Source: Candidatus Aegiribacteria sp. (GTDB lineage: Bacteria; Fermentibacterota; Fermentibacteria; Fermentibacterales; JCC-6). From it: a stretch of 64,000 nucleotides of DNA. A model generated the notes under the pieces. It did no database searches. It had not been told where the DNA came from and worked only from the letters and a program-made list of their open reading frames with translations. Within the stretch, counting starts at the first letter, position 1. Each line of letters opens with the position of its first letter. A program made the position numbers and the translations under genes. Of the stretch, positions 8,438 through 17,260 are shown piece by piece. The stretch is from the NCBI GenBank assembly GCA_030600545.1, contig JAUVLV010000006.1, forward strand, positions 359 through 64,358. The letters are read 5' to 3'.

Positions 8438-8984
8438 CCGGAAAAAAGCCCTTGAATTACTTGAAGAGAATCTCAGCAACAGGAACCTCATACGTCACTG
8501 CCTGGCGTCCGAAGCCGTTATGCGCAGGCTTGCGGAGGACAGGGGAGAGGATCAGGATATCTGGGGTACTACCGGTCTTCTGCATGACCTTGACTACGAA
8601 AAAACCGCTGATAACCCCGCTAAACACGGTCTTGTTACCGCTGAAATGCTTGAGGGGCAGCTCCCGGAAGAATCGATAAATGCTATAAAAGCACATAATT
8701 ATGAGAATAACGGTATCGAGAGAGTTTCTAATCTGGATTATCTTCTCGCCGCAGGAGAGTCAATAACCGGTCTGATAGTTGCAGTTGCCCTGGTTTACCC
8801 CGGGAAGAAACTTCAGCCTGTAAAATTGAAATCAGTTACAAAGAGAATGAAAATGGCCGCCTTCGCCCGATCGGTTCCCAGAGAAACCATCAAAGATTGC
8901 TCCAGGGCCGGATACGAACTGAACGAATTTATTCGCCTTTCCCTTGAAGCAATGAAGGGGATAGCTTCGGAAATAGGCCTTTAA
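8421..8984 (+). CDS. HD-domain phosphohydrolase (HDIG-type)
   Basis: RHCLASEAVM, GLLHDLD, IKAH. Confidence 0.85.
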   Translation: MSTLISRKKALELLEENLSNRNLIRHCLASEAVMRRLAEDRGEDQDIWGTTGLLHDLDYEKTADNPAKHGLVTAEMLEGQLPEESINAIKAHNYENNGIERVSNLDYLLAAGESITGLIVAVALVYPGKKLQPVKLKSVTKRMKMAAFARSVPRETIKDCSRAGYELNEFIRLSLEAMKGIASEIGL

Positions 8985-9037: not shown

Positions 9038-9119
9038 ATCAACATCCCAGTAAATGTAACTGCACCATATCAGCGTTACAACAGTAATAGTGTACATATT
9101 CTTGTCAAGTCACATCGTC

Positions 9120-9149
9120 TTGACAGTTAAATAGCTTAATTAATATGAT
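9120..9149 (+). promoter_or_regulatory. Sigma70-type promoter upstream of the cassette array (Pc-like)
   Basis: TTGACA (9120-9125), 18 nt, TATGAT (9144-9149). Confidence 0.6.
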
Positions 9150-9181
9150 ATTGCTTAGTAGGTACATTATGCAAGCATCGA

Positions 9182-9213
9182 GATATGTTGCAGTTACATA
9201 ATCATTGTTCTCC
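9182..9213 (+). other. attI-like recombination site
   Basis: GTTACATAATCATTG|TTCTCC; GTTCTCCG (9207-9214) is the exact complement of CGGAGAAC opening attC1; no attC-type hairpin upstream. Confidence 0.55.
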
Positions 9214-9234
9214 GATAGAGCAGAAAGGAAATAA

Positions 9235-9774
9235 TTGCCTGAAAAATCAAAGGATCTCACAGAACATCGTATTATCTCAAGCATCTTAATCGTTCGGGAT
9301 ACGAAAGTTATTCTTGATTCTGATCTTGCTAAACTGTATGGAGTTGAAACTCGCCGTTTAAATGAGCAAGTTCGGCGTAATCTTTCCAAATTCCCAGATG
9401 ACTTTATCTTTCAATTGTCCAAAGAGGAATTCGAAATCTTGAAGTCGCAAATTGCGACATCAAGTTCCAGCTGGGGTGGACGCAGAAAACCACCAATTGT
9501 CTTTACTGAGTATGGCGCATTACAGGCTGCAAATTTGCTGAGCTCAGAACAGGCAAACAGAATGAGCGTTTTCATTATACGAGCATTTATCAAACTGCGC
9601 GAAATGGCATTCACAAACGAAATACTATCCCGGAAATTCGAGCAATTGGAAAAACAAGTCACTGAACATGATGAAATCTTGATAAAATTAGTTCAAGAAA
9701 TTAGAAAACTGATAGATCCACCCAAGACTTCAGCAAAGAAAGCGATAGGTTTTAGAAGTCCCGATAAGAAGTAA
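9235..9774 (+). CDS. ORF6N-domain protein (cassette 1)
   Basis: VILDSDLAKLYGVET...NEQVRRN...FPDDFIFQL...GGRR...FTEYG; C-terminal IGF. Confidence 0.9.
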   Translation: MPEKSKDLTEHRIISSILIVRDTKVILDSDLAKLYGVETRRLNEQVRRNLSKFPDDFIFQLSKEEFEILKSQIATSSSSWGGRRKPPIVFTEYGALQAANLLSSEQANRMSVFIIRAFIKLREMAFTNEILSRKFEQLEKQVTEHDEILIKLVQEIRKLIDPPKTSAKKAIGFRSPDKK

Positions 9775-9782
9775 TAATATGC

Positions 9783-9864
9783 GGAGAACAAATGCATGAA
9801 CCAGTCACAAATGCAAAGCTATGACCCAGAGTAATATCTGTGCTGGTTATGCAGAGCGTTAGAG
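9783..9864 (+). repeat. attC site 1 (82 bp)
   Basis: GGAGAAC-AAAT-GCATGAACCAGTCACA...TGTGCTGGTTATGC-AGAGC-GTTAGAG, imperfect palindrome with bulged bases. Confidence 0.88.
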
Positions 9865-9909
9865 AGTGAAAATAGCTTACACCGATAACGAAGTGGAAGA
9901 AAGGAAATA

Positions 9910-11199
9910 ATGAAACAGGAAATTCTTAATCTAAGTATTTCTTTCTCCCTTCTGTTTTTCTCAATATGCAATACCTTTGCTGAACCAATCCCTGAAGTAT
10001 CTGTAACGGGTTCTTCTGCTCCAGAAGCTCATGAAATCTTCTCTATTGAAACATCTGAGGATCTTGAATCAATTCTAACTGACGGCTACCCTTTGCCATG
10101 GGTTGCTGAAATCCTTGAAGACGAAACTATTCCAGAGAAAGACAGATATTGGCTTGACTGTCGGATAAGAGCAATCATTGCCCAGGATTTGCATACTTTC
10201 TTCAACAGAGAGGGAGAACCGGTTCAAGTAGATGCTGATTGGATAAGGTATGGTGAGGATTACTGGCAGGAACACTTCATCGTCAATCCGCCAGGAGAGT
10301 TTCCTATGGGAGAGTATAACCAGATTTCACTTACATTTGACACAGAGCCAGATCCAGTAACTGGATTATGGGGAGAGAATGGGTTTGCTTACAATCGATT
10401 TGGAGAGAAAACTGGTGAGTTTGCTCTTTGCAACACATCCTTACAGCTCTCAAGAGATGGTTCTATTGGCTTAGTGCTTGCTAGAGGTTCACAGAGAGTA
10501 ACTGAATATGGTCCAGTTTATCTCTATTTTGTCCATAGCGATGGAACTTTTTACAAAAATCCTGAAGAACTCTGGATTTACGACTATTCTCTTAGCAAAA
10601 GTGGTGAATTCGCTTTACTAGTTCAAAGAAAAGAAAATGAGCCAGACTCGATTGAAATGTTTGACAGAAGAGGGAATCTGATTTGGGAGCAGGAAGTAAC
10701 GGCAACAATGTATCAGCGAATATCAATCTCACCAAACAACGAATTGTGCTTGATTCCATCAAGTCAGCGAAATCCAATCAATCACTATATCCAAGTTCTT
10801 AATACCGCTGATGGTAGTGAACTGGAGGTATACAATGAATATCCGATTTTCTCTCCTGATGGAGAAATAGTATGCATTGGATCAACAGTATGTGTATCCT
10901 CCGACAATCTTACTGAAATATGTTCTATCGGAAATCCAGATGAGAGTTTGTCTACTTATGACTTAAGCATTGATAACAACGCAAATCTTTTTGCTGGAAT
11001 ACTACATCCACCAGAAGCCTTGATTTCAGAAGAAACAAAACTAGCAGTATGGTCTCAAAATGGCTTGATAATACTGGAGCAACCTTTCGTTCGGAACGAG
11101 AATATCGTTCTTTCTCCAAACGGAGCATTCGCTATGGTCTTCTCAGAATACAGCAATACCTCTTCAACTTCATGCACGATTTGGAGGATTGATTTTTGA
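9910..11199 (+). CDS. Secreted hypothetical protein, probable beta-propeller (cassette 2)
   Basis: Signal-peptide-like N-terminus; repeated SRDG/SPNN/SPDG/SPNG blade motifs; RBS AAGGA. Confidence 0.7.
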   Translation: MKQEILNLSISFSLLFFSICNTFAEPIPEVSVTGSSAPEAHEIFSIETSEDLESILTDGYPLPWVAEILEDETIPEKDRYWLDCRIRAIIAQDLHTFFNREGEPVQVDADWIRYGEDYWQEHFIVNPPGEFPMGEYNQISLTFDTEPDPVTGLWGENGFAYNRFGEKTGEFALCNTSLQLSRDGSIGLVLARGSQRVTEYGPVYLYFVHSDGTFYKNPEELWIYDYSLSKSGEFALLVQRKENEPDSIEMFDRRGNLIWEQEVTATMYQRISISPNNELCLIPSSQRNPINHYIQVLNTADGSELEVYNEYPIFSPDGEIVCIGSTVCVSSDNLTEICSIGNPDESLSTYDLSIDNNANLFAGILHPPEALISEETKLAVWSQNGLIILEQPFVRNENIVLSPNGAFAMVFSEYSNTSSTSCTIWRIDF

Positions 11200-11289
11200 A
11201 GGTGCTAAATAGCGTACCAGCCCGCTGCGCGCGCCCACATCTAAAAGTAAATTTAAGTTACTTGAAAGATTTGAATTATGAGAATTAAT

Positions 11290-11372
11290 CTCTAACAACC
11301 AAATTCAACAGAACTGCGGCTATGTTCTCCCAAAGTTATGTTATTGCAGTCAGCTGATTTGGAGCGTTATGG
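11290..11372 (+). repeat. attC site 2 (83 bp)
   Basis: CTCTAAC-AACCAAATTCAACAGAACTGC...GCAGTCAGCTGATTTGGAGC-GTTATGG; CTCTAAC complements GTTAGAG of attC1. Confidence 0.88.
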
Positions 11373-11388
11373 CTAAAAAAGGAGGACA

Positions 11389-13140
11389 GTGATGCTAGTA
11401 TTTGTTTCATTGGTTATTTCTCTGGTCTCTGCAACGAGTGTTTCAATAACAGAACCGATTGATGGGGAAACCTACGATGGCGACTGGCTGACCGTTCGTG
11501 CAATTGTGGAGAATGAGAACGAAACTCCAGACTCAGTTCATTACAGTCTAAACGGCCTATCCGTTATTCAGATCCCCAGGCTGGACACTGATTGGCCAAC
11601 TTACATGCAGAATTACCAGAGGCATGGATACTCCGAATCACCGGCACCACATACATCAGATATTCTGTGGACTGCTCCGGTCTGCGGAGATTATCATGAA
11701 TTCCCAACTCCTGCGGTTGTGGATGGGACGGTATACTATCCACAGGACGGTGTTGGAGCGGGAGATACTCTCTTTGCTCTCGATTCAGCAACAGGTTCGA
11801 TAAAGTGGTCCTACCCGGTGGGATATACTGATGACACGGTTACACTCAAGAACGGTCTGCTTTATTCTGCATCGGATTCTCTTTTCTGCCTGGATGCAGG
11901 GACCGGAGCAAGGGTATGGGCATGGGGAGATGAAGCTGATTTCCACCAGACCGGCAGCCCTATCGTGACCAATGGTGTTGTGTATTTTGCCACTAGCCAT
12001 GATTATGACACTTCAAGAGTATATGCAGCAGACGCAGCATCGGGTCTGATCATCTGGGAGACCGGGTTCTCAGGTGCGCTTGAGACCAGTCTTGCATATT
12101 TCGATAATACCATATACATAGCTCTGTTTACAGATTTTATGGATTACGACGATCATGAGTCTTTGTTCGCTCTTGATGCCTCGTCCGGTTCCATTCTATG
12201 GTCTAACGACCATACCGATGGAGGATACTGGGACTCGTCTCCGAACATCTATGAAGGGATGCTGTACATCGATGGATGGGATGGTTGCCTGCACGCTTTC
12301 GATGCAGAGAATGGTGTTCTCGCATGGGAAACAGTATTACATCCCGCCTCCTATCTATTCGGTGTCGAACCAACACCCGCGATACATGATGATCTACTGT
12401 TTATCGGTTGCTGTTTCTACGGATGCGGAACGCCTTTCGGTTATGTAGGAGCTCACTCCACGACAACTGGTTCGGAAGTATGGAGTATTGTTGATAGGAT
12501 AGAGCTCCATGGCTCGTTCGGCCTGGCAGAAGATCTCGCATTCATAGGATCATTCACAAAAGACAGTATATTCGCATTCGATCAGTCAACCGGTGAGATC
12601 GAATGGGTTTATGGATTCCAGGGAACCAGGTATGATGGTTGTCAATCAAGCCCTTCCATAACAGATGGTGTCATGTATATCGCTGCAACTGACGGTAATC
12701 TTTACGCATTCGGCACAGGTCTCAAATTCACCTACCTTGATGATCTTTTCGCTGGAGTAGGAGCCAATGAATTGATAGCAACTTCCTTTTATGAAGGAGT
12801 TGCTATGGCAGTTGATACGATCAACTTCACCGTGACTGGTACTGGAATCGAACTTGATCCATTTCGCATGCTTCAGATCAGCGTAAGCCCTAATCCTTTC
12901 CATTCAACCGCAAGCATCTCGTTCGAGCTTGCAGAGCCTGGATGGACGATGGTGTCCGTGTACGACCTCTCGGGTAGGACCGTCAGAACACTAGAGAATT
13001 CAGAACTCGGAGCCGGTCAGCACTCAGTAGCCTGGGATGGAACAGGTGAAAACGGTGAGATTCTTGCAACAGGTGTCTATATCTGCAGAATACAATCCGG
13101 AGGATTTTCTAAAACCACAGGTCTGTGTCTGTTGAGATAG
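11389..13140 (+). CDS. Secreted PQQ-like beta-propeller protein with FlgD-Ig/T9SS-like C-terminal domain (cassette 3)
   Basis: Repeated ALDxxTGxxxW blades; C-terminal SPNPF...YDLSGR...WDG...GVYICR. Confidence 0.88.
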   Translation: MMLVFVSLVISLVSATSVSITEPIDGETYDGDWLTVRAIVENENETPDSVHYSLNGLSVIQIPRLDTDWPTYMQNYQRHGYSESPAPHTSDILWTAPVCGDYHEFPTPAVVDGTVYYPQDGVGAGDTLFALDSATGSIKWSYPVGYTDDTVTLKNGLLYSASDSLFCLDAGTGARVWAWGDEADFHQTGSPIVTNGVVYFATSHDYDTSRVYAADAASGLIIWETGFSGALETSLAYFDNTIYIALFTDFMDYDDHESLFALDASSGSILWSNDHTDGGYWDSSPNIYEGMLYIDGWDGCLHAFDAENGVLAWETVLHPASYLFGVEPTPAIHDDLLFIGCCFYGCGTPFGYVGAHSTTTGSEVWSIVDRIELHGSFGLAEDLAFIGSFTKDSIFAFDQSTGEIEWVYGFQGTRYDGCQSSPSITDGVMYIAATDGNLYAFGTGLKFTYLDDLFAGVGANELIATSFYEGVAMAVDTINFTVTGTGIELDPFRMLQISVSPNPFHSTASISFELAEPGWTMVSVYDLSGRTVRTLENSELGAGQHSVAWDGTGENGEILATGVYICRIQSGGFSKTTGLCLLR

Positions 13141-13143
13141 GAA

Positions 13144-13223
13144 CCATAACCAGAGGCTGCAGTGGAATACTACTCGCTGAATCCAATTCCTTGTAGGACT
13201 ATCCACTGAGCCTATTGTTTGGT
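13144..13223 (+). repeat. attC site 3 (80 bp)
   Basis: CCATAAC-CAGAGGCTGCAGTGGAATA...TATCCACTGAGCCTATT-GTTTGGT; CCATAAC complements GTTATGG of attC2. Confidence 0.9.
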
Positions 13224-13232
13224 ACAAGACAT

Positions 13233-13826
13233 ATGAATGGAAACAAACGACGGTACACCGTTCGCCAAGCTACGGAAGCAGATTTACCCGTCCTTGCGGA
13301 CATCAAGTCACCAATGGCCATCCACAAAGACCGCCTTCTGGATGCGGACAGCGAGAAAATGCTCTACATGATTATTGAGGAATTCGGTACTGTTATTGGA
13401 TTCGGACTTCTCGTTTTCAAGCGTCCACCCACTTGGCCTGACGCTAACGACAGCTCCCATCTCCCGGCGATGGTCGACTTGCTTGTCAGCCCGGACCGTC
13501 GGAGTCGTGGTGCGGGATCATTCCTCATCAGTTGGATGGAGGAAACCATACGCTCCAGAGGAGGTAACCATTTGTACATGTGCGTGGACCCGGTCGATAA
13601 TCCAAGAGCCCATCAACTCTACCTGCGTCTGGGATACTCAACTCTCCAGACACAGCCATACAGGTCACATTGGAAGTTCGCGGATTCTGACGGAAACGTG
13701 CACGAAGGAAACGTATGGAACATTGATATGGTGAAGGATCTAAGTCAGAAAACACGGGGGTCACCCAACACTTATGAGGCCACCCTCTGTCAAGGGGCAA
13801 AGTTCGTCACTGACAGCATGTGCTAA
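13233..13826 (+). CDS. GNAT N-acetyltransferase (cassette 4); C-terminus runs into IS sequence
   Basis: VSPDRRSRGAGS acetyl-CoA motif, NPRAHQLYLRLGY; ATG 13233 used because the track start 13215 lies inside attC3. Confidence 0.85.
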   Translation: MNGNKRRYTVRQATEADLPVLADIKSPMAIHKDRLLDADSEKMLYMIIEEFGTVIGFGLLVFKRPPTWPDANDSSHLPAMVDLLVSPDRRSRGAGSFLISWMEETIRSRGGNHLYMCVDPVDNPRAHQLYLRLGYSTLQTQPYRSHWKFADSDGNVHEGNVWNIDMVKDLSQKTRGSPNTYEATLCQGAKFVTDSMC

Positions 13827-14249
13827 CTGTTTTCATTTATCGTCTTGTATTCAGTCTTCGCGTTCTGTCTTAGTTTCAATATCAGGTTCTGCGCCAAACA
13901 CTTATCGAGGATCTGCGGCTCATCCTTGATGAACCGGGAAGGATTCTTCCTTCTCGTCCTAGAAACACATACGTTCCCTCATGCCGTCCCATTCACAACG
14001 TCGGGCTGAATGCCGTAGCATTCACCAGTTAGCTCCGGGTTCGGGGGAGGAGCAGAACACTTCATCGAATACTTATCATTTCTGCGGGAGCGAAGCGACC
14101 ATCCAATCAAAGCGTATGTTTACCTGGAATGCGCTGAGGTACCTTCATCCTGGTCAAGGCCAGATTCTCTCGAAGTTTCTCTTCGAGGGTACTCATCCAG
14201 CTTCTTCCTTTCGGTCACAGTTAGCTGTTCGGCTTGGCCGCTCCCTCCC
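13770..14249 (-). ncRNA. Candidate bridge/seek RNA region; exact RNA ends unknown
   Basis: 480-nt region downstream of the IS110 recombinase with many hairpins, a C(UACG)G tetraloop and copies of the element-end motif. Confidence 0.6.
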
Positions 14250-15296
14250 TTATACTCTGAGGAATTTTTTCATATCGAATGCCTTCTCGCGCTTTAGCAT
14301 ATAGTAGACCGTTCTTCCAAGCTTGTGGGCAAGGATGAAAAGAGACTTGGCTTTGCCATGTTTTCTCTCCAGCCGCTTCTTGTACTTCATCCCTTCCGAA
14401 TTTCCACGCAGGAACAGTACAGCAGCTTCGGAGAACGTCCACTTCAGATGAACATTCCCGATCTTGCTTCCGGAAGTTCCATATCGTTTTCCGGCGGATT
14501 CTCTGGCACATTTCACCAGCCTGCTGTATGAAGCAAAGTTCTGCACCCTCGGGAAGCGGTTAATGTCTCCTATCTCGTAGAGAATCGTCAGAGACAAGAT
14601 TTTCCCGATTCCATAAATGGTTCGGAGCAGGTGAAGTGACTGTGGATCATGGTTCTTTGCATTGCTCAGAACATGCTTTTTCATGGCTCTGATCTGAACT
14701 GCAAATTGGTCTATCATATCCATATTGGTCTTCATACTCATGTATACATTCGGATCGGTGAAGTGACTCAGAACCTCTTCACGGCGACATTTGTGAGTGA
14801 TATTGGAAGTGCCGAAGAGAGGCTGATTGTACTGGCTGTTCGTGTTCTGAACATGGGTGATAAGATCAGCCCTCTTCCGAACCAGGTAATTTCTTCTTCT
14901 CAGAAGATCTCTCGTTGCCCTCATCTTCGCAGGATAGACATAGGCCATGGGGAACATTCCGCCTTTGAGCATGACAGCTATCTTTCCCGAATCTATCCTG
15001 TCGTTCTTGGCTTTTCCGCCATGGATGGCTTTCATGTACAAGGCATGACCAAGAGTGAAAGGTATTCCTTCCTCTGCACATAGATCCGCCACCCAGTACC
15101 AGGTGAAGATGCATTCCACTCCGATGACTATATCCGGTCTGTATGGTTCGATAGCTTTGAGAAGGGATTCCGGATCAGCTTTCATGTTCCGGTGAAGAAC
15201 GATTTCACCATCTGAACTGATGATGCAGAGATACATCACCCTGGCGTGTAGGTCGATGCCGCAGTAATATTGGTGTGTGGTAGTATAGAATCTCAT
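14250..15296 (-). CDS. IS110-family DEDD transposase/recombinase
   Basis: GIDLH, GVEC and KNDRID (DEDD); GIGKIL; ESAGK with candidate catalytic Ser; RBS AGGAGG. Confidence 0.95.
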   Translation of the reverse strand: MRFYTTTHQYYCGIDLHARVMYLCIISSDGEIVLHRNMKADPESLLKAIEPYRPDIVIGVECIFTWYWVADLCAEEGIPFTLGHALYMKAIHGGKAKNDRIDSGKIAVMLKGGMFPMAYVYPAKMRATRDLLRRRNYLVRKRADLITHVQNTNSQYNQPLFGTSNITHKCRREEVLSHFTDPNVYMSMKTNMDMIDQFAVQIRAMKKHVLSNAKNHDPQSLHLLRTIYGIGKILSLTILYEIGDINRFPRVQNFASYSRLVKCARESAGKRYGTSGSKIGNVHLKWTFSEAAVLFLRGNSEGMKYKKRLERKHGKAKSLFILAHKLGRTVYYMLKREKAFDMKKFLRV

Positions 15297-15732
15297 TGGG
15301 TCTCCTCCTTGTTAGGGAAAAAGTTATCACCCTCAGCATACCAGAATGGCATGCCGAGGGGGAGGCCTCAATGAGTATCAGAGGAATCTGGTTCACTCCT
15401 GATCATTGTGAAACATATACTCAATTAGGAGGTGCTTCAGGGATTCCTGACAGGAATATTTTCCAGAATATTGTTAGTGGTGCAGTTGATATTGCTATAG
15501 CACCTTTTTCGGCCTTTCAGGATTATCTGATAGAGATTCAGCAGGTATCTATTCCGTTTCATATGAAATCTTCAGGCAGAATCCCAGAACTCTTGAATAT
15601 CTTGCAGCAGCACCAGCAGATACCGGTAATTTCGGAGAAAGATTCCTTATGGGGATGTGTGATGAGCTTCCTAATGGAAATTCGCCTTGATACCGGGCAA
15701 TATTCCCTGAATCGAATTCCGCTATTAAGGTT

Positions 15733-15884
15733 TGATCAATGACTCAGTCATGGTCGAAAAGTATACTTCCAGGTTTTCTCGATCGGAACCTGATGGTTAC
15801 TTTTTCTTCTGCTTCGCCTGTTTCCTGGCGAGGCTGATAACAGTTCTCGCTGCAGCGATTCTTATCTCCCTGGAATCGTTCCTG
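15733..15884. repeat. Diverged direct repeat, copy A (duplicate of GGDEF-HEAT gene 3' end and downstream flank)
   Basis: 152 bp, 10 mismatches by hand count versus 17564-17715. Confidence 0.95.
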
Positions 15885-16653
15885 CCCAGTTTCGAAGAAT
15901 CTCCGGGAAAAGCTTTACCCTAAGGAGGTCGTTCCTTCCGGGAACGAATGGTTCCACATCCCTTACAAGGTCATCAATGCTTCTTTCGCCAAGGCGATTT
16001 AATATAAGCTCCTCGATCTTATTTCTGGAAGAAATCTGAACCTTCTGCTCAAGGAAATTCATATCCGGTTTTGTGATTCCGAATAGATGAGAGGCGTCAT
16101 AAAGATCACGACCCATGATTCTCCTGCGGTTCAGTATGGCATATAGCTTCTGGGCCAGAATCAGTTCAGCGGGAGCTGCAGGTACTGGAACGATCACATC
16201 CAGGCGGTTCAGCACCTTTACCCGCGGTGTATAGCTATACCGCTGCGGTGAAGCGTCAAACTTGAGGGTGAGCACCTCATCTCTATGGCGCGTGAGTTCC
16301 CACTGTTGAAGGATATTAGTGAATCTGAACTTTGTTGAAAACGCGGTTCCTCTGCCAAAAGATATATTGCACTCAACAGCCTCTAATTTGAATTCATTAA
16401 CTGCTGTCAGGGCTATTCGCTGAAGAGCATCACCGGAAAGGTTCTTTGAATCAAAGTCAAGATCTTCGGAAAACCTGCTGCTTCCATAGAATACTCTCAA
16501 TGCTGTTCCACCCATGAAAACCAGTCCGCTGCTTTCCTTCGCTCTGAAAATGAACTGAAGTGTTTTGTACTGCAGGTATTCCCTTAGCATGGCTCTTTTA
16601 AAGGTATCGGGAATGCCGGGGAAAGCGTCATAGACGATCGAATGGTCAAGCAT
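15862..16653 (-). CDS. abiEii: AbiEii-type nucleotidyltransferase toxin (type IV TA)
   Basis: FMGGTALR, RFSEDLDF, AQKL, RDLYD. Confidence 0.92.
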   Translation of the reverse strand: MLDHSIVYDAFPGIPDTFKRAMLREYLQYKTLQFIFRAKESSGLVFMGGTALRVFYGSSRFSEDLDFDSKNLSGDALQRIALTAVNEFKLEAVECNISFGRGTAFSTKFRFTNILQQWELTRHRDEVLTLKFDASPQRYSYTPRVKVLNRLDVIVPVPAAPAELILAQKLYAILNRRRIMGRDLYDASHLFGITKPDMNFLEQKVQISSRNKIEELILNRLGERSIDDLVRDVEPFVPGRNDLLRVKLFPEILRNWAGTIPGR

Positions 16654-17260
16654 TTTTCATCACCTCAATCAATATTTTTACCTTCCTTGTCAGCCAGGGC
16701 TTGTTGAACCGTTCTGCCATGTCGAGGATCTCCATTGGATCCAATCCGCTAAAAGTCTCCGTGTCAAAACGTAGTTCCAGCATATCCTCCGCCGAGCTGA
16801 TATCCCTCCTGAAGTAGAGCAGATCAACAACCGCTCTCTCCGGAAAAGCCATAAGATATCTGTGATTTCTTCCCGTCTTTGCTTCATAACCGAAGAGATA
16901 CTCCGGCTGAATGCTTCTGTATATGAATGTGCATAGAGGTGAATCGATGCGACGGGTCTTTCTTGTGCAGACAGAAGTGACAGAAAGAACTGTCTCCGGA
17001 ATGAGCTCGTAAAATGAAAGTGCTGATTCCAGAGAAACGAACGAGGGTGTGTATATCCTGCCGGCAATTGCAAATAGATCGGTCTCTTCACTGGTTTCCC
17101 CCGTTAGAACATAGTATCCGGGAGCCACCATTATGATCTTTCCGCTACGGTTCCACCTGGAAAGGGTTTCCTGACGAAGACCGGGCATTGTGCTCCTTAC
17201 ATCAGCAAGTGAAACAACCGGCAACTTCTTCGCTATTTCAGCAAATTCGTGCAACCTCAA
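16646..17260 (-). CDS. abiEi: AbiEi-type antitoxin / transcriptional regulator
   Basis: PSFVSLESALSFYELIPE, PERAVVDLLY; overlaps the toxin start. Confidence 0.88.
   Translation of the reverse strand: MRLHEFAEIAKKLPVVSLADVRSTMPGLRQETLSRWNRSGKIIMVAPGYYVLTGETSEETDLFAIAGRIYTPSFVSLESALSFYELIPETVLSVTSVCTRKTRRIDSPLCTFIYRSIQPEYLFGYEAKTGRNHRYLMAFPERAVVDLLYFRRDISSAEDMLELRFDTETFSGLDPMEILDMAERFNKPWLTRKVKILIEVMKNA

Follow-up and report, generated by a model that had tools for sequence, protein, structure and literature searches.

Insertion sequences (ISs) of the IS1111 type that use attC, the structured recombination site of integron cassettes, as their target have been described before. For ISPa21 and ISPst6, insertion close to the attC 5' end and in antisense to the cassettes has been reported (PMC3001079), and a 2026 review tabulates ISKpn4, ISPst6 and ISPa25 as inserting between ..GAA (..GAG for ISPa25) and CGAATTGTTAG (CG..TTGTTAG), a point which, in cassette orientation, lies about 6 nt 3' of the AAC (PMC13604230). 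A further source characterizes IS1111 elements by subterminal inverted repeats, a non-coding region downstream of the gene, a GL-P----S(t)G motif and terminal extensions of 7 and 3 nt (PMC11187229). Here we describe a related element in a 64,000-nt stretch of contig JAUVLV010000006.1 from a Candidatus Aegiribacteria sp. genome (hereafter the window), where it lies in an array of gene cassettes, at the R'' end of the fourth attC (attC4). We regard it as very probable that this is an intact IS110-family IS of the IS1111 type inserted at the R'' of attC4, that its flanks have been exchanged with those of a second copy on contig C3 of the same genome, and that it represents a seekRNA-guided, attC-targeting clade. 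Its anatomy, ends and core, its cassette context, the target logo of its relatives, a conserved RNA structure and the covariation of guide and flank are directly supported by the data presented below.

The insertion point is defined by the cassette array, which occupies window positions 9207-13770 and in which imperfect palindromes running from an AAC to a GTT lie at three sites between open reading frames (ORFs). In integrons, a cassette opens with bases contributed by its R', and these are complementary to the R'' of that cassette. This rule holds at 7/7 positions in each of the first three cassettes, where GTTCTCC (9207-9213) pairs with GGAGAAC, GTTAGAG (9858-9864) with CTCTAAC and GTTATGG (11366-11372) with CCATAAC; the palindromes following their ORFs span 9787-9860 (attC-like), 11290-11372 (judged by eye) and 13148-13219 (attC-like). 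In cassette 4 the boundary GTTTGGT (13217-13223) pairs with ACCCAAC (13763-13769) at 6/7 positions, and it is the boundary rule that identifies ACCCAAC as the inverse core of this cassette. The rule is also obeyed in arrays that lie beside intI in relatives (L071 and L074). Furthermore, 34 of the 60 family genomes contain an integron integrase that scores above the curated TIGR02249 cut-off, compared with 0 of 14 control genomes; the window contains no integron integrase, so that none adjoins the array. The ORF of cassette 4 encodes a GNAT acetyltransferase (PF00583, E 8.9e-13). As no useful relative of this protein exists among the 59 other genomes of the family, the true remainder of attC4 is not directly visible, and exact-pattern scans of metagenome contigs recovered neither an IS-free GNAT cassette nor an uninterrupted attC of the kind seen on the C3 side.

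The limits of the IS were taken from similarity boundaries among five copies in the own genome and from 16 + 26 junction rows from relatives. On the left, ACCCAAC leads into the core CA (13769-13770), directly followed by CTTATGAGGCC (13771-13781), and the right junction (15364-15384) reads GGCCTCAATGAGTAT-CA-GAGG. The repeats CTTATGAGGCC and GGCCTCAATGAG pair at 11 of 12 positions with one indel, as expected of IS1111 repeats (approximately 11-13 bp), and their motifs are kept across phyla. Beyond them stand the extensions TGATA on the gene side (5 nt, core included) and 0-2 nt on the tail side, a count that hinges on the repeat start chosen. An empty site is preserved in the relative L012, which reads ..GCT AAC AGA GGA ATC TGG.. 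without interruption, while the corresponding occupied halves in the own genome read ..GCTAA-CA-IS on contig C3 and IS-CA-GAGGAATCTGG in the window. With one CA in the empty site and two in the occupied one, CA is a shared core and there is no longer duplication; AACA stands at the empty-site position in only one (L012) of the six relatives compared. The recombinase gene is preceded by 82 bp and followed by 479 bp of non-coding sequence, which is the layout of the IS1111 type.

The recombinase contains the domains PF01548 (E 5.7e-13) and PF02371 (E 8.7e-18) in Pfam, and scores 199.8 bits on the NCBIfam model NF033542, 'IS110 family RNA-guided transposase', for which the cut-off is 140. Residues D15, E61, D99, D102 and S267 are unchanged in 14 aligned sequences, the most distant of which has 31% identity, and S267 aligns with a Ser in the ESGSS stretch of IS621 (PDB 8wt6, E 1.7e-6, C-terminal domain only). 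The Ser and DEDD residues are catalytic in IS621. The C-terminal IS1111 motif GL-P----S(t)G reads RLVKCARESAG here, keeping the Ser and neither the G nor the P. On the strength of its sequence we assign the element to the IS110 family, with a predicted DEDD/Ser recombinase; it falls in an environmental clade of very large size, whose recombinases have 347-348 aa and start with MRFY. The original prediction, made from the DNA letters, had proposed an insertion directly after the AAC of the attC4 inverse core, a CA core shared without a longer duplication, and a transposase opposite in direction to the cassettes that keeps the DEDD and Ser motifs. All of this holds: cassette 4 follows the boundary rule, the element starts right at ACCCAAC both in the sequence and by the ends common to the own-genome copies, the empty site of L012 accounts for the core, and the gene lies on the minus strand with invariant DEDD and Ser residues while the cassette ORFs lie on the plus strand.

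The own genome (G000) is a metagenome bin of 74 contigs and 2.29 Mb, 73% complete, and the element recurs in it. The copy on contig C3 has 88-91% identity and an internal deletion of approximately 340 bp, that on contig C4 is degraded (80-87% identity) with a broken ORF, that on contig C26 (92% identity) is ended by the contig edge, and C30:6584-6672 is an 89-bp remnant of the tail-side end, located at TCCGAAC behind an ORF. Similarity starts in all of them at AAC(A/C)CTTATGAGG and, in the three with the opposite end preserved, stops at ..GAGTATCA; such repeated copies with common ends make the element real and no chance match. Only the window copy has an intact ORF. The C4 copy sits at CCATAAC, and GTTATGG, the start of the cassette in which it lies, is found 1713 nt upstream, right after another attC. 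For the C30 remnant, the expected cassette boundary GTTCGGA is located 636 nt upstream, preceded by ..CTCAACTATCA, which resembles the other end of the element. Contig C26 (7581-13112) carries a 77-aa remnant whose C-terminus looks integron-integrase-like by eye, beside a DNA polymerase III alpha-like gene; after it come small ORFs resembling HigB/HigA and BrnT/BrnA (by eye), at least one attC (8453-8527) and the IS copy at the contig end. The attC of cassette 2 in the window resembles this C26 attC.

The flanks of related elements indicate what the clade targets. Within the phylum (Candidatus Fermentibacteria/Aegiribacteria), the recombinase is present at E <= 1e-40 in 15 of 70 genomes, G000 included. 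AAC precedes the element in 12 of 13 unique tail-side junctions, the exception reading ATC (L031, identical to L027), and the first base of the gene-side flank is A in 16 of 19 unique cases. A flank was scored as an attC remainder if it held a palindrome with a score of at least 15, starting within 8 nt and ending within 125 nt, with a GTT 1-8 nt behind it. By hand count, 10 of the 18 phylum flanks of sufficient length qualify; among 4000 AACA sites drawn at random from the own genome as controls, 22 do.

Outside the phylum, all of the 8000 candidate protein clusters that were scored passed E <= 1e-30, so that the clade numbers at least 8000 of them. The 79 loci found in species-representative genomes, at 58-91% identity, come from dozens of environmental lineages, including Myxococcales, Chromatiales, Krumholzibacteriia, Binatia, Acidimicrobiia, Nitrospirota, relatives of Desulfobacterota, Gemmatimonadota, Planctomycetota and Acidobacteriota. 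Among 59 validated gene-side ends, 53 have a flank of at least 110 nt, and 20 of these 53 carry an attC remainder (binomial probability approximately 1e-31 at the control rate); the unfiltered count is 23/63, which includes spurious internal motif matches. Behind the core, the gene-side logo reads A-NNN-GCTGCAGCCGAC, which we take to be the familiar attC start of class 1 cassettes; the pattern used to find these ends starts with TG, so the TG core is presupposed there.

On the tail side, the first left-flank logo was biased at the two core-adjacent bases, which formed part of the search pattern, and these positions therefore rest on a pattern free of flank bases that found 43 of 59 right ends, 40 of them unique. 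This pattern replaced a search through each element's own inverted repeat, which was noisy, shifted by 1 nt and often picked an internal look-alike. The core at the 40 unique junctions is TG in 28, GG in 7, AG in 3 and CG in 2; it is followed by T (37/40), T (36/40) and then A/G, G, G and C. In cassette orientation this flank is GCC(T/C)AA|CA, which fits the attC consensus RYYYAAC. On the tail side, the second base of the core may have come from the target. In the own C4 copy, the tail-side core is CC in cassette orientation. Taken together, these alignments of flanks indicate that the clade inserts at the attC inverse core, antisense to the cassettes, with an apparent crossover at AA|CA, which takes in the AAC of R'' and one base more. 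The proposal that it targets attC at R'' thus survives a check on homologues for YAAC followed by an attC remainder: T/C-AA recurs at 36-37 of 40 tail-side junctions, attC remainders are enriched, and the true ends are those first drawn. The same end motifs occur in a 57%-identical element on a Vibrio campbellii plasmid (L057, NC_022271.1, 2920-4500). The flanks of this plasmid copy look like Vibrio-type attC by eye, and its neighbours are another IS110-family gene and an IS4 element.

The non-coding tail is the most likely source of a target-choosing seekRNA (bridge RNA). In the alignment it is highly conserved save for a few patches. RNAalifold on 46 sequences from across phyla predicts three helices with 15 pairs, 10 of which show compensatory changes; paired cells amount to 94.3% against 81.8% in shuffled alignments, covariation is 0.368 against 0.143, and controls with a slid frame give 0.03-0.08. 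On four of five measures 0 of 500 shuffles reached the observed value, and for further pair types 1 of 500 did. A variable patch, P1, is the reverse complement of the first gene-side flank bases more often than expected by chance: cognate pairs match at 4.35/8 positions, compared with 3.40 +/- 0.14 for permuted pairs (0/5000) and 3.23/8 for shuffled flanks (0/2000 reach the cognate value), in a test of n = 51 that includes one spurious row and in which the relatedness of the copies overstates independence. Unusual flanks are accompanied by a matching unusual P1 in L132 (7/8), L100 (8/8) and L121 (6/8). Furthermore, P1 matches flanks that are not attC-like in L132, L113 (6/8) and L149 (6/8), which suggests natural retargeting; L105 and L140 are further members whose flanks do not look like attC.

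A second patch, P2, is seen only in tails of the Fermentibacteria type, and matches at 7/7 positions in the C3 copy and in L030, whose guide and flank sequences differ. L026:4875-5448 (CBDVBK010000111.1) is a derivative of approximately 580 bp without recombinase, resembling a miniature inverted-repeat transposable element, which consists of 83 bp of the gene-side end and the whole tail; neither its P1 nor its P2 matches its own flank. The hexamer TTGACA, 17 nt from the tail-side end and invariant in 10 aligned copies, is a possible -35 box of a promoter formed at a circle junction. All copies also contain, at about 13870-13900 in the window, a conserved internal look-alike of the tail-side end with core and two flank bases (..CTCGATAAG-TG-TTTGG), in which the RNA may carry its own version of the junction between donor and target.

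The right flank of the window copy bears on how the locus reached its present form. It shows no attC remainder, its best palindrome being 7 bp with no GTT after it. From 15381 it encodes RGIWFTPDH..., matching the middle of a protein present in 13 of 60 family genomes, G000 included; relative to the 395-aa version in the relative G010 it covers residues 192-242 and 235-306, in two frames and with one stop. The left flank of the C3 copy encodes residues 155-195 of the same protein, ending in ..FNHVKWEEMLSQAA-N, and the two halves of this decayed gene abut at one nucleotide. The protein belongs to no Pfam family, and the label 'M23-like', given by look, was dropped for that reason. An AbiEii toxin/AbiEi antitoxin pair (15862-17260, minus strand) adjoins the gene remnant in the window. 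The original prediction expected YAAC and then an attC remainder in the flanks of homologous elements; for the window copy itself the right flank is not the rest of attC4, being a fragment of the decayed gene with its other half beside the C3 copy. On the other hand, the far flank of the C3 copy is an attC remainder, with an L''/L' palindrome, AGC and GTTCGCT, and 716 nt further on an attC starting with AGCGAAC (7/7 to this R') follows within an array. The P2 of the window copy predicts this C3-side flank exactly (7/7) and its present right flank at 4/7 positions, which agrees with an exchange of flanks. The split gene halves and the attC remainder on C3 lead us to conclude that one copy entered attC4, the other entered the gene, and their flanks now stand crosswise.

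The continuity of the reading frame across the insertion invites a different explanation. Removal of 1610 bp yields a single 305-aa open frame from 13215 through 15742, as if the element had split one long gene consisting of the GNAT joined to a C-terminal domain, ACCCAAC being mere coding sequence. We consider this highly improbable: the homologue of the downstream part is the central portion of an unrelated protein of relatives, whose upstream residues 155-195 lie beside the C3 copy, the remnant is itself frameshifted, the GNAT domain ends near residue 145 of 185, and ACCCAAC follows the cassette-boundary rule. Because the right flank is the remnant of a decayed gene with its other half at C3, the 305-aa frame is a coincidence.

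Flanks were exchanged between the window and C3 copies, and whether this happened by recombination or by assembly is a matter of probability. A real rearrangement, in which the copy in attC4 and the copy in the gene recombined and the array was split between the window and C3, has about an even chance in our estimate, and would have proceeded by homologous recombination or through the element's own recombinase acting on the junctions of the two copies. It is favoured by the precise abutment of the gene halves, by the attC remainder that lies in an array on C3 and equals the target predicted by the window P2, and by sequence contigs. Contigs from four public runs were placed on the window, an uncovered part or missing joint being counted as no evidence either way, and they bridge each junction without differences (X1 over 12900-13832, 63 nt into the element; X1 and X4 from 15351). 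However, no more than 30 nt of the element are present in the contigs at the right junction, short of the 31 nt that the rule for bridging demands, no read or contig spans the element or connects the two junctions across the 1.6-kb repeat, and the unequal flank depths in X1 (7.3 vs 14.7) disfavour a 1:1 linkage.

These unequal depths would also fit an assembly chimera, in which the window copy in the cell has the attC remainder of the C3 side, and the C3 copy has both gene halves. The fragmentation and incompleteness of the bin point the same way, as does the depth of the element, which in X1, X4 and X6 (13756-15467) is 5-30x that of its flanks, its interior being represented by many short variant contigs that imply many diverged copies in these sediment and cold-seep communities. 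Divergence of 9-12% and the deletion of approximately 340 bp separate the two copies, so that a silent crossover in assembly would be harder to achieve, if still possible, and nothing speaks directly against it; we regard a chimera as quite conceivable, at somewhat less than an even chance. The exchange of flanks itself is common to both accounts.

By analogy with ISEc11, ISKpn4 and IS621, an RNA would be made from the tail and would bind the recombinase. This RNA may pair with the cassette-sense strand of L'' beside AACA, reading the next 7-8 bases, after which the target and a circular form of the element would undergo a Ser-mediated exchange at the CA core. TTGACA would, in such a circle, point toward the opposite end and might give rise to a promoter at the junction. 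Expression of the RNA, its binding to the protein and a circular intermediate with a junction promoter are thus put forward from the comparison with these systems.

Several observations weigh against the overall reading of a seekRNA-guided IS at attC4. The genome that carries the array has no match above the TIGR02249 cut-off, at 73% completeness. The terminal extensions depart from those of IS1111, which measure 7 (or 6) bp at the left end and 3 bp at the right. An attC remainder is found in only 20 of the 53 cross-phylum flanks, with L105, L132 and L140 clearly outside attC. ACCCAAC pairs with the C3-side GTTCGCT at only 5/7 positions (by eye), and the window copy's own right flank is matched at 2/7 positions by P1 and 4/7 by P2. 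More generally, the guide-flank matches are partial, with a mean of 4.35/8 among related copies that are not independent. The tail corresponds to no Rfam family, a lone sub-threshold snoRNA match (E 0.19) being taken as chance, and none of the recorded RNA runs contains the stretch, which is seen in DNA runs.

Compared with known systems, the window element is closest to the IS1111-attC group (ISPa21, ISPst6, ISKpn4, ISPa25). As far as the available descriptions go, both insert with site and orientation specificity near the attC 5' end, antisense to the cassettes, and both have subterminal inverted repeats and a downstream non-coding region, which in that group gives a seekRNA. Relative to the position tabulated for ISKpn4, ISPst6 and ISPa25, the crossover of the present clade at AA|CA is shifted about 5 bp towards R''. 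The hosts also differ, as the present clade occurs in uncultured environmental phyla and the IS1111-attC group in Pseudomonas and Klebsiella.

It might be argued from the common attC end and antisense orientation, described for ISPa21 and ISPst6 in PMC3001079, and from the repeats and downstream non-coding region, given for IS1111 in PMC11187229, that the element is a plain member of this subgroup and no distinct lineage. We find this unlikely. The insertion point lies about 5 bp away from the one listed for ISKpn4, ISPst6 and ISPa25 in the table of PMC13604230, the motif GL-P----S(t)G reads RLVKCARESAG, and plasmid relatives lie elsewhere. Among 72,556 plasmids, matches above 36% identity are confined to 14 records (51-60%), from Candidatus Manganitrophus and the marine gammaproteobacteria Pseudoalteromonas, Vibrio, Catenovulum, Alteromonas and Salinivibrio, and the next match is at 35%. 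IS4321/IS5075 and class 1 integrons abound in plasmids of the Klebsiella/Pseudomonas type. In this plasmid set, no enterobacterial or Pseudomonas integron record lies near the top matches, the ten genera most frequent in tblastn at E 1e-3 include neither Klebsiella nor Pseudomonas, and a match on a P. aeruginosa plasmid (H22, 31% identity) is not in an integron. A literature search returned no account of an attC-targeting IS that inserts at the AAC itself; key earlier papers and supplements lay outside that search, which is thus not proof of absence. The suggestion that the clade may be distinct from the described IS1111-attC subgroup is borne out as to the insertion point, compared with the position tabulated for ISKpn4, ISPst6 and ISPa25.

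More distant systems share fewer features. The available descriptions of other IS1111 elements (ISEc11, IS4321/IS5075, ISPa11) agree in a recombinase of 330-350 aa, subterminal repeats, a downstream non-coding region, the lack of a long target duplication and an element-specific target; the window element departs from them in its extensions (5 and 0-2 nt, not 7 and 3) and in its C-terminal RLVKCARESAG. IS621 and the bridge RNA systems of the IS110 group share a DEDD and Ser recombinase, a 2-nt donor/target core and an RNA with programmable patches, whereas the RNA of the window element would lie downstream of the gene rather than upstream, the subterminal repeats are long and only the C-terminal domain aligns. 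Group IIC-attC introns likewise insert near the attC 5' end in antisense, according to PMC3001079. As retroelements they carry a ribozyme together with a reverse transcriptase, and have neither a DEDD recombinase nor inverted repeats.

In the window, a near-perfect palindrome of 146 nt (9054-9199, ATGTAACTGCA...TGCAGTTACAT) with a folding energy of -23 to -25 kcal/mol lies between the array and housekeeping genes, immediately upstream of the boundary of cassette 1; it may be an odd attC or an old start of the array. A generic scan for AAC...GTT hairpins by folding energy was dropped, as it gave dozens of matches throughout the window on both strands and flagged only one cassette site. The coordinates of the features are collected in Table 1.

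Table 1 Features of the cassette array and the inserted IS, in window coordinates.
Feature	Position	Strand	Description
Cassette 1	9207-9864	+	ORF6N-domain ORF 9235-9774 (PF10543); attC R'' GGAGAAC 9783-9789, R' GTTAGAG 9858-9864
Cassette 2	9859-11372	+	429-aa ORF 9910-11199; attC R'' CTCTAAC 11290-11296, R' GTTATGG 11366-11372
Cassette 3	11367-13223	+	583-aa PQQ-repeat protein with sorting tail, 11389-13140 (Pfam); R'' CCATAAC 13144-13150, R' GTTTGGT 13217-13223
Cassette 4	13218-13770	+	GNAT acetyltransferase ORF, start 13215 TTG or 13233 ATG; R'' ACCCAAC 13763-13769 plus left CA 13769-13770
IS body	13771-15378	-	1608 bp between two CA cores, 1610 bp with one core; from own-genome similarity limits and junctions of relatives
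Subterminal inverted repeat, tail side	13771-13781		CTTATGAGGCC
Non-coding tail	13771-14249	-	479 bp downstream of recombinase gene
TTGACA	13788-13793	-	17 nt from tail-side end; invariant in 10 aligned copies
Candidate seekRNA/bridge-RNA region	13945-14184	-	Conserved structured RNA, RNAalifold on 46 sequences
Variable patch P2	14064-14070	-	ATTCGAT in RNA sense; second candidate guide
Variable patch P1	14110-14116	-	7 nt, immediately 5' of the conserved TGATTGGA; putative guide for recombinase-side flank
Recombinase/transposase gene	14250-15296	-	348 aa; DEDD D15, E61, D99, D102 and Ser267
Subterminal inverted repeat, recombinase side	15364-15375		GGCCTCAATGAG, then TAT, then core
Right CA core copy	15379-15380
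Right flank	15381-15717	+	Frameshifted remnant of conserved gene, family unknown; no attC remainder

Elements of the IS1111 type that target attC are already known, and what is described here is a variant that uses another register on attC by an ordinary mechanism and over a notable breadth of hosts. A bolder reading, to which we give a little less than an even chance, is that of a separate, very large cross-phylum lineage of seekRNA-guided ISs that parasitizes integrons, reads the R''-L'' junction (AA|CA and the following 7-8 bases) and acts as a main agent that parts arrays from their integrase, the window being a case in point, its guides being occasionally reprogrammed to non-attC targets, as the 7/8 match of the L132 guide to its unusual flank would imply.

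In either case, ISs that target attC freeze or fuse cassettes and can cut arrays apart, and thereby shape the evolution of integrons. Examples described so far were found in Pseudomonas and in clinical class 1 integrons, and the present clade shows a second register on the same attC end. With its guide-target covariation, the clade is a natural series of guide RNAs against a structured recombination site, and offers ready material for learning how RNAs of the IS1111 type are programmed. The window itself may record the IS-mediated split of a cassette array, which, if true, would be one route to arrays without an integrase.

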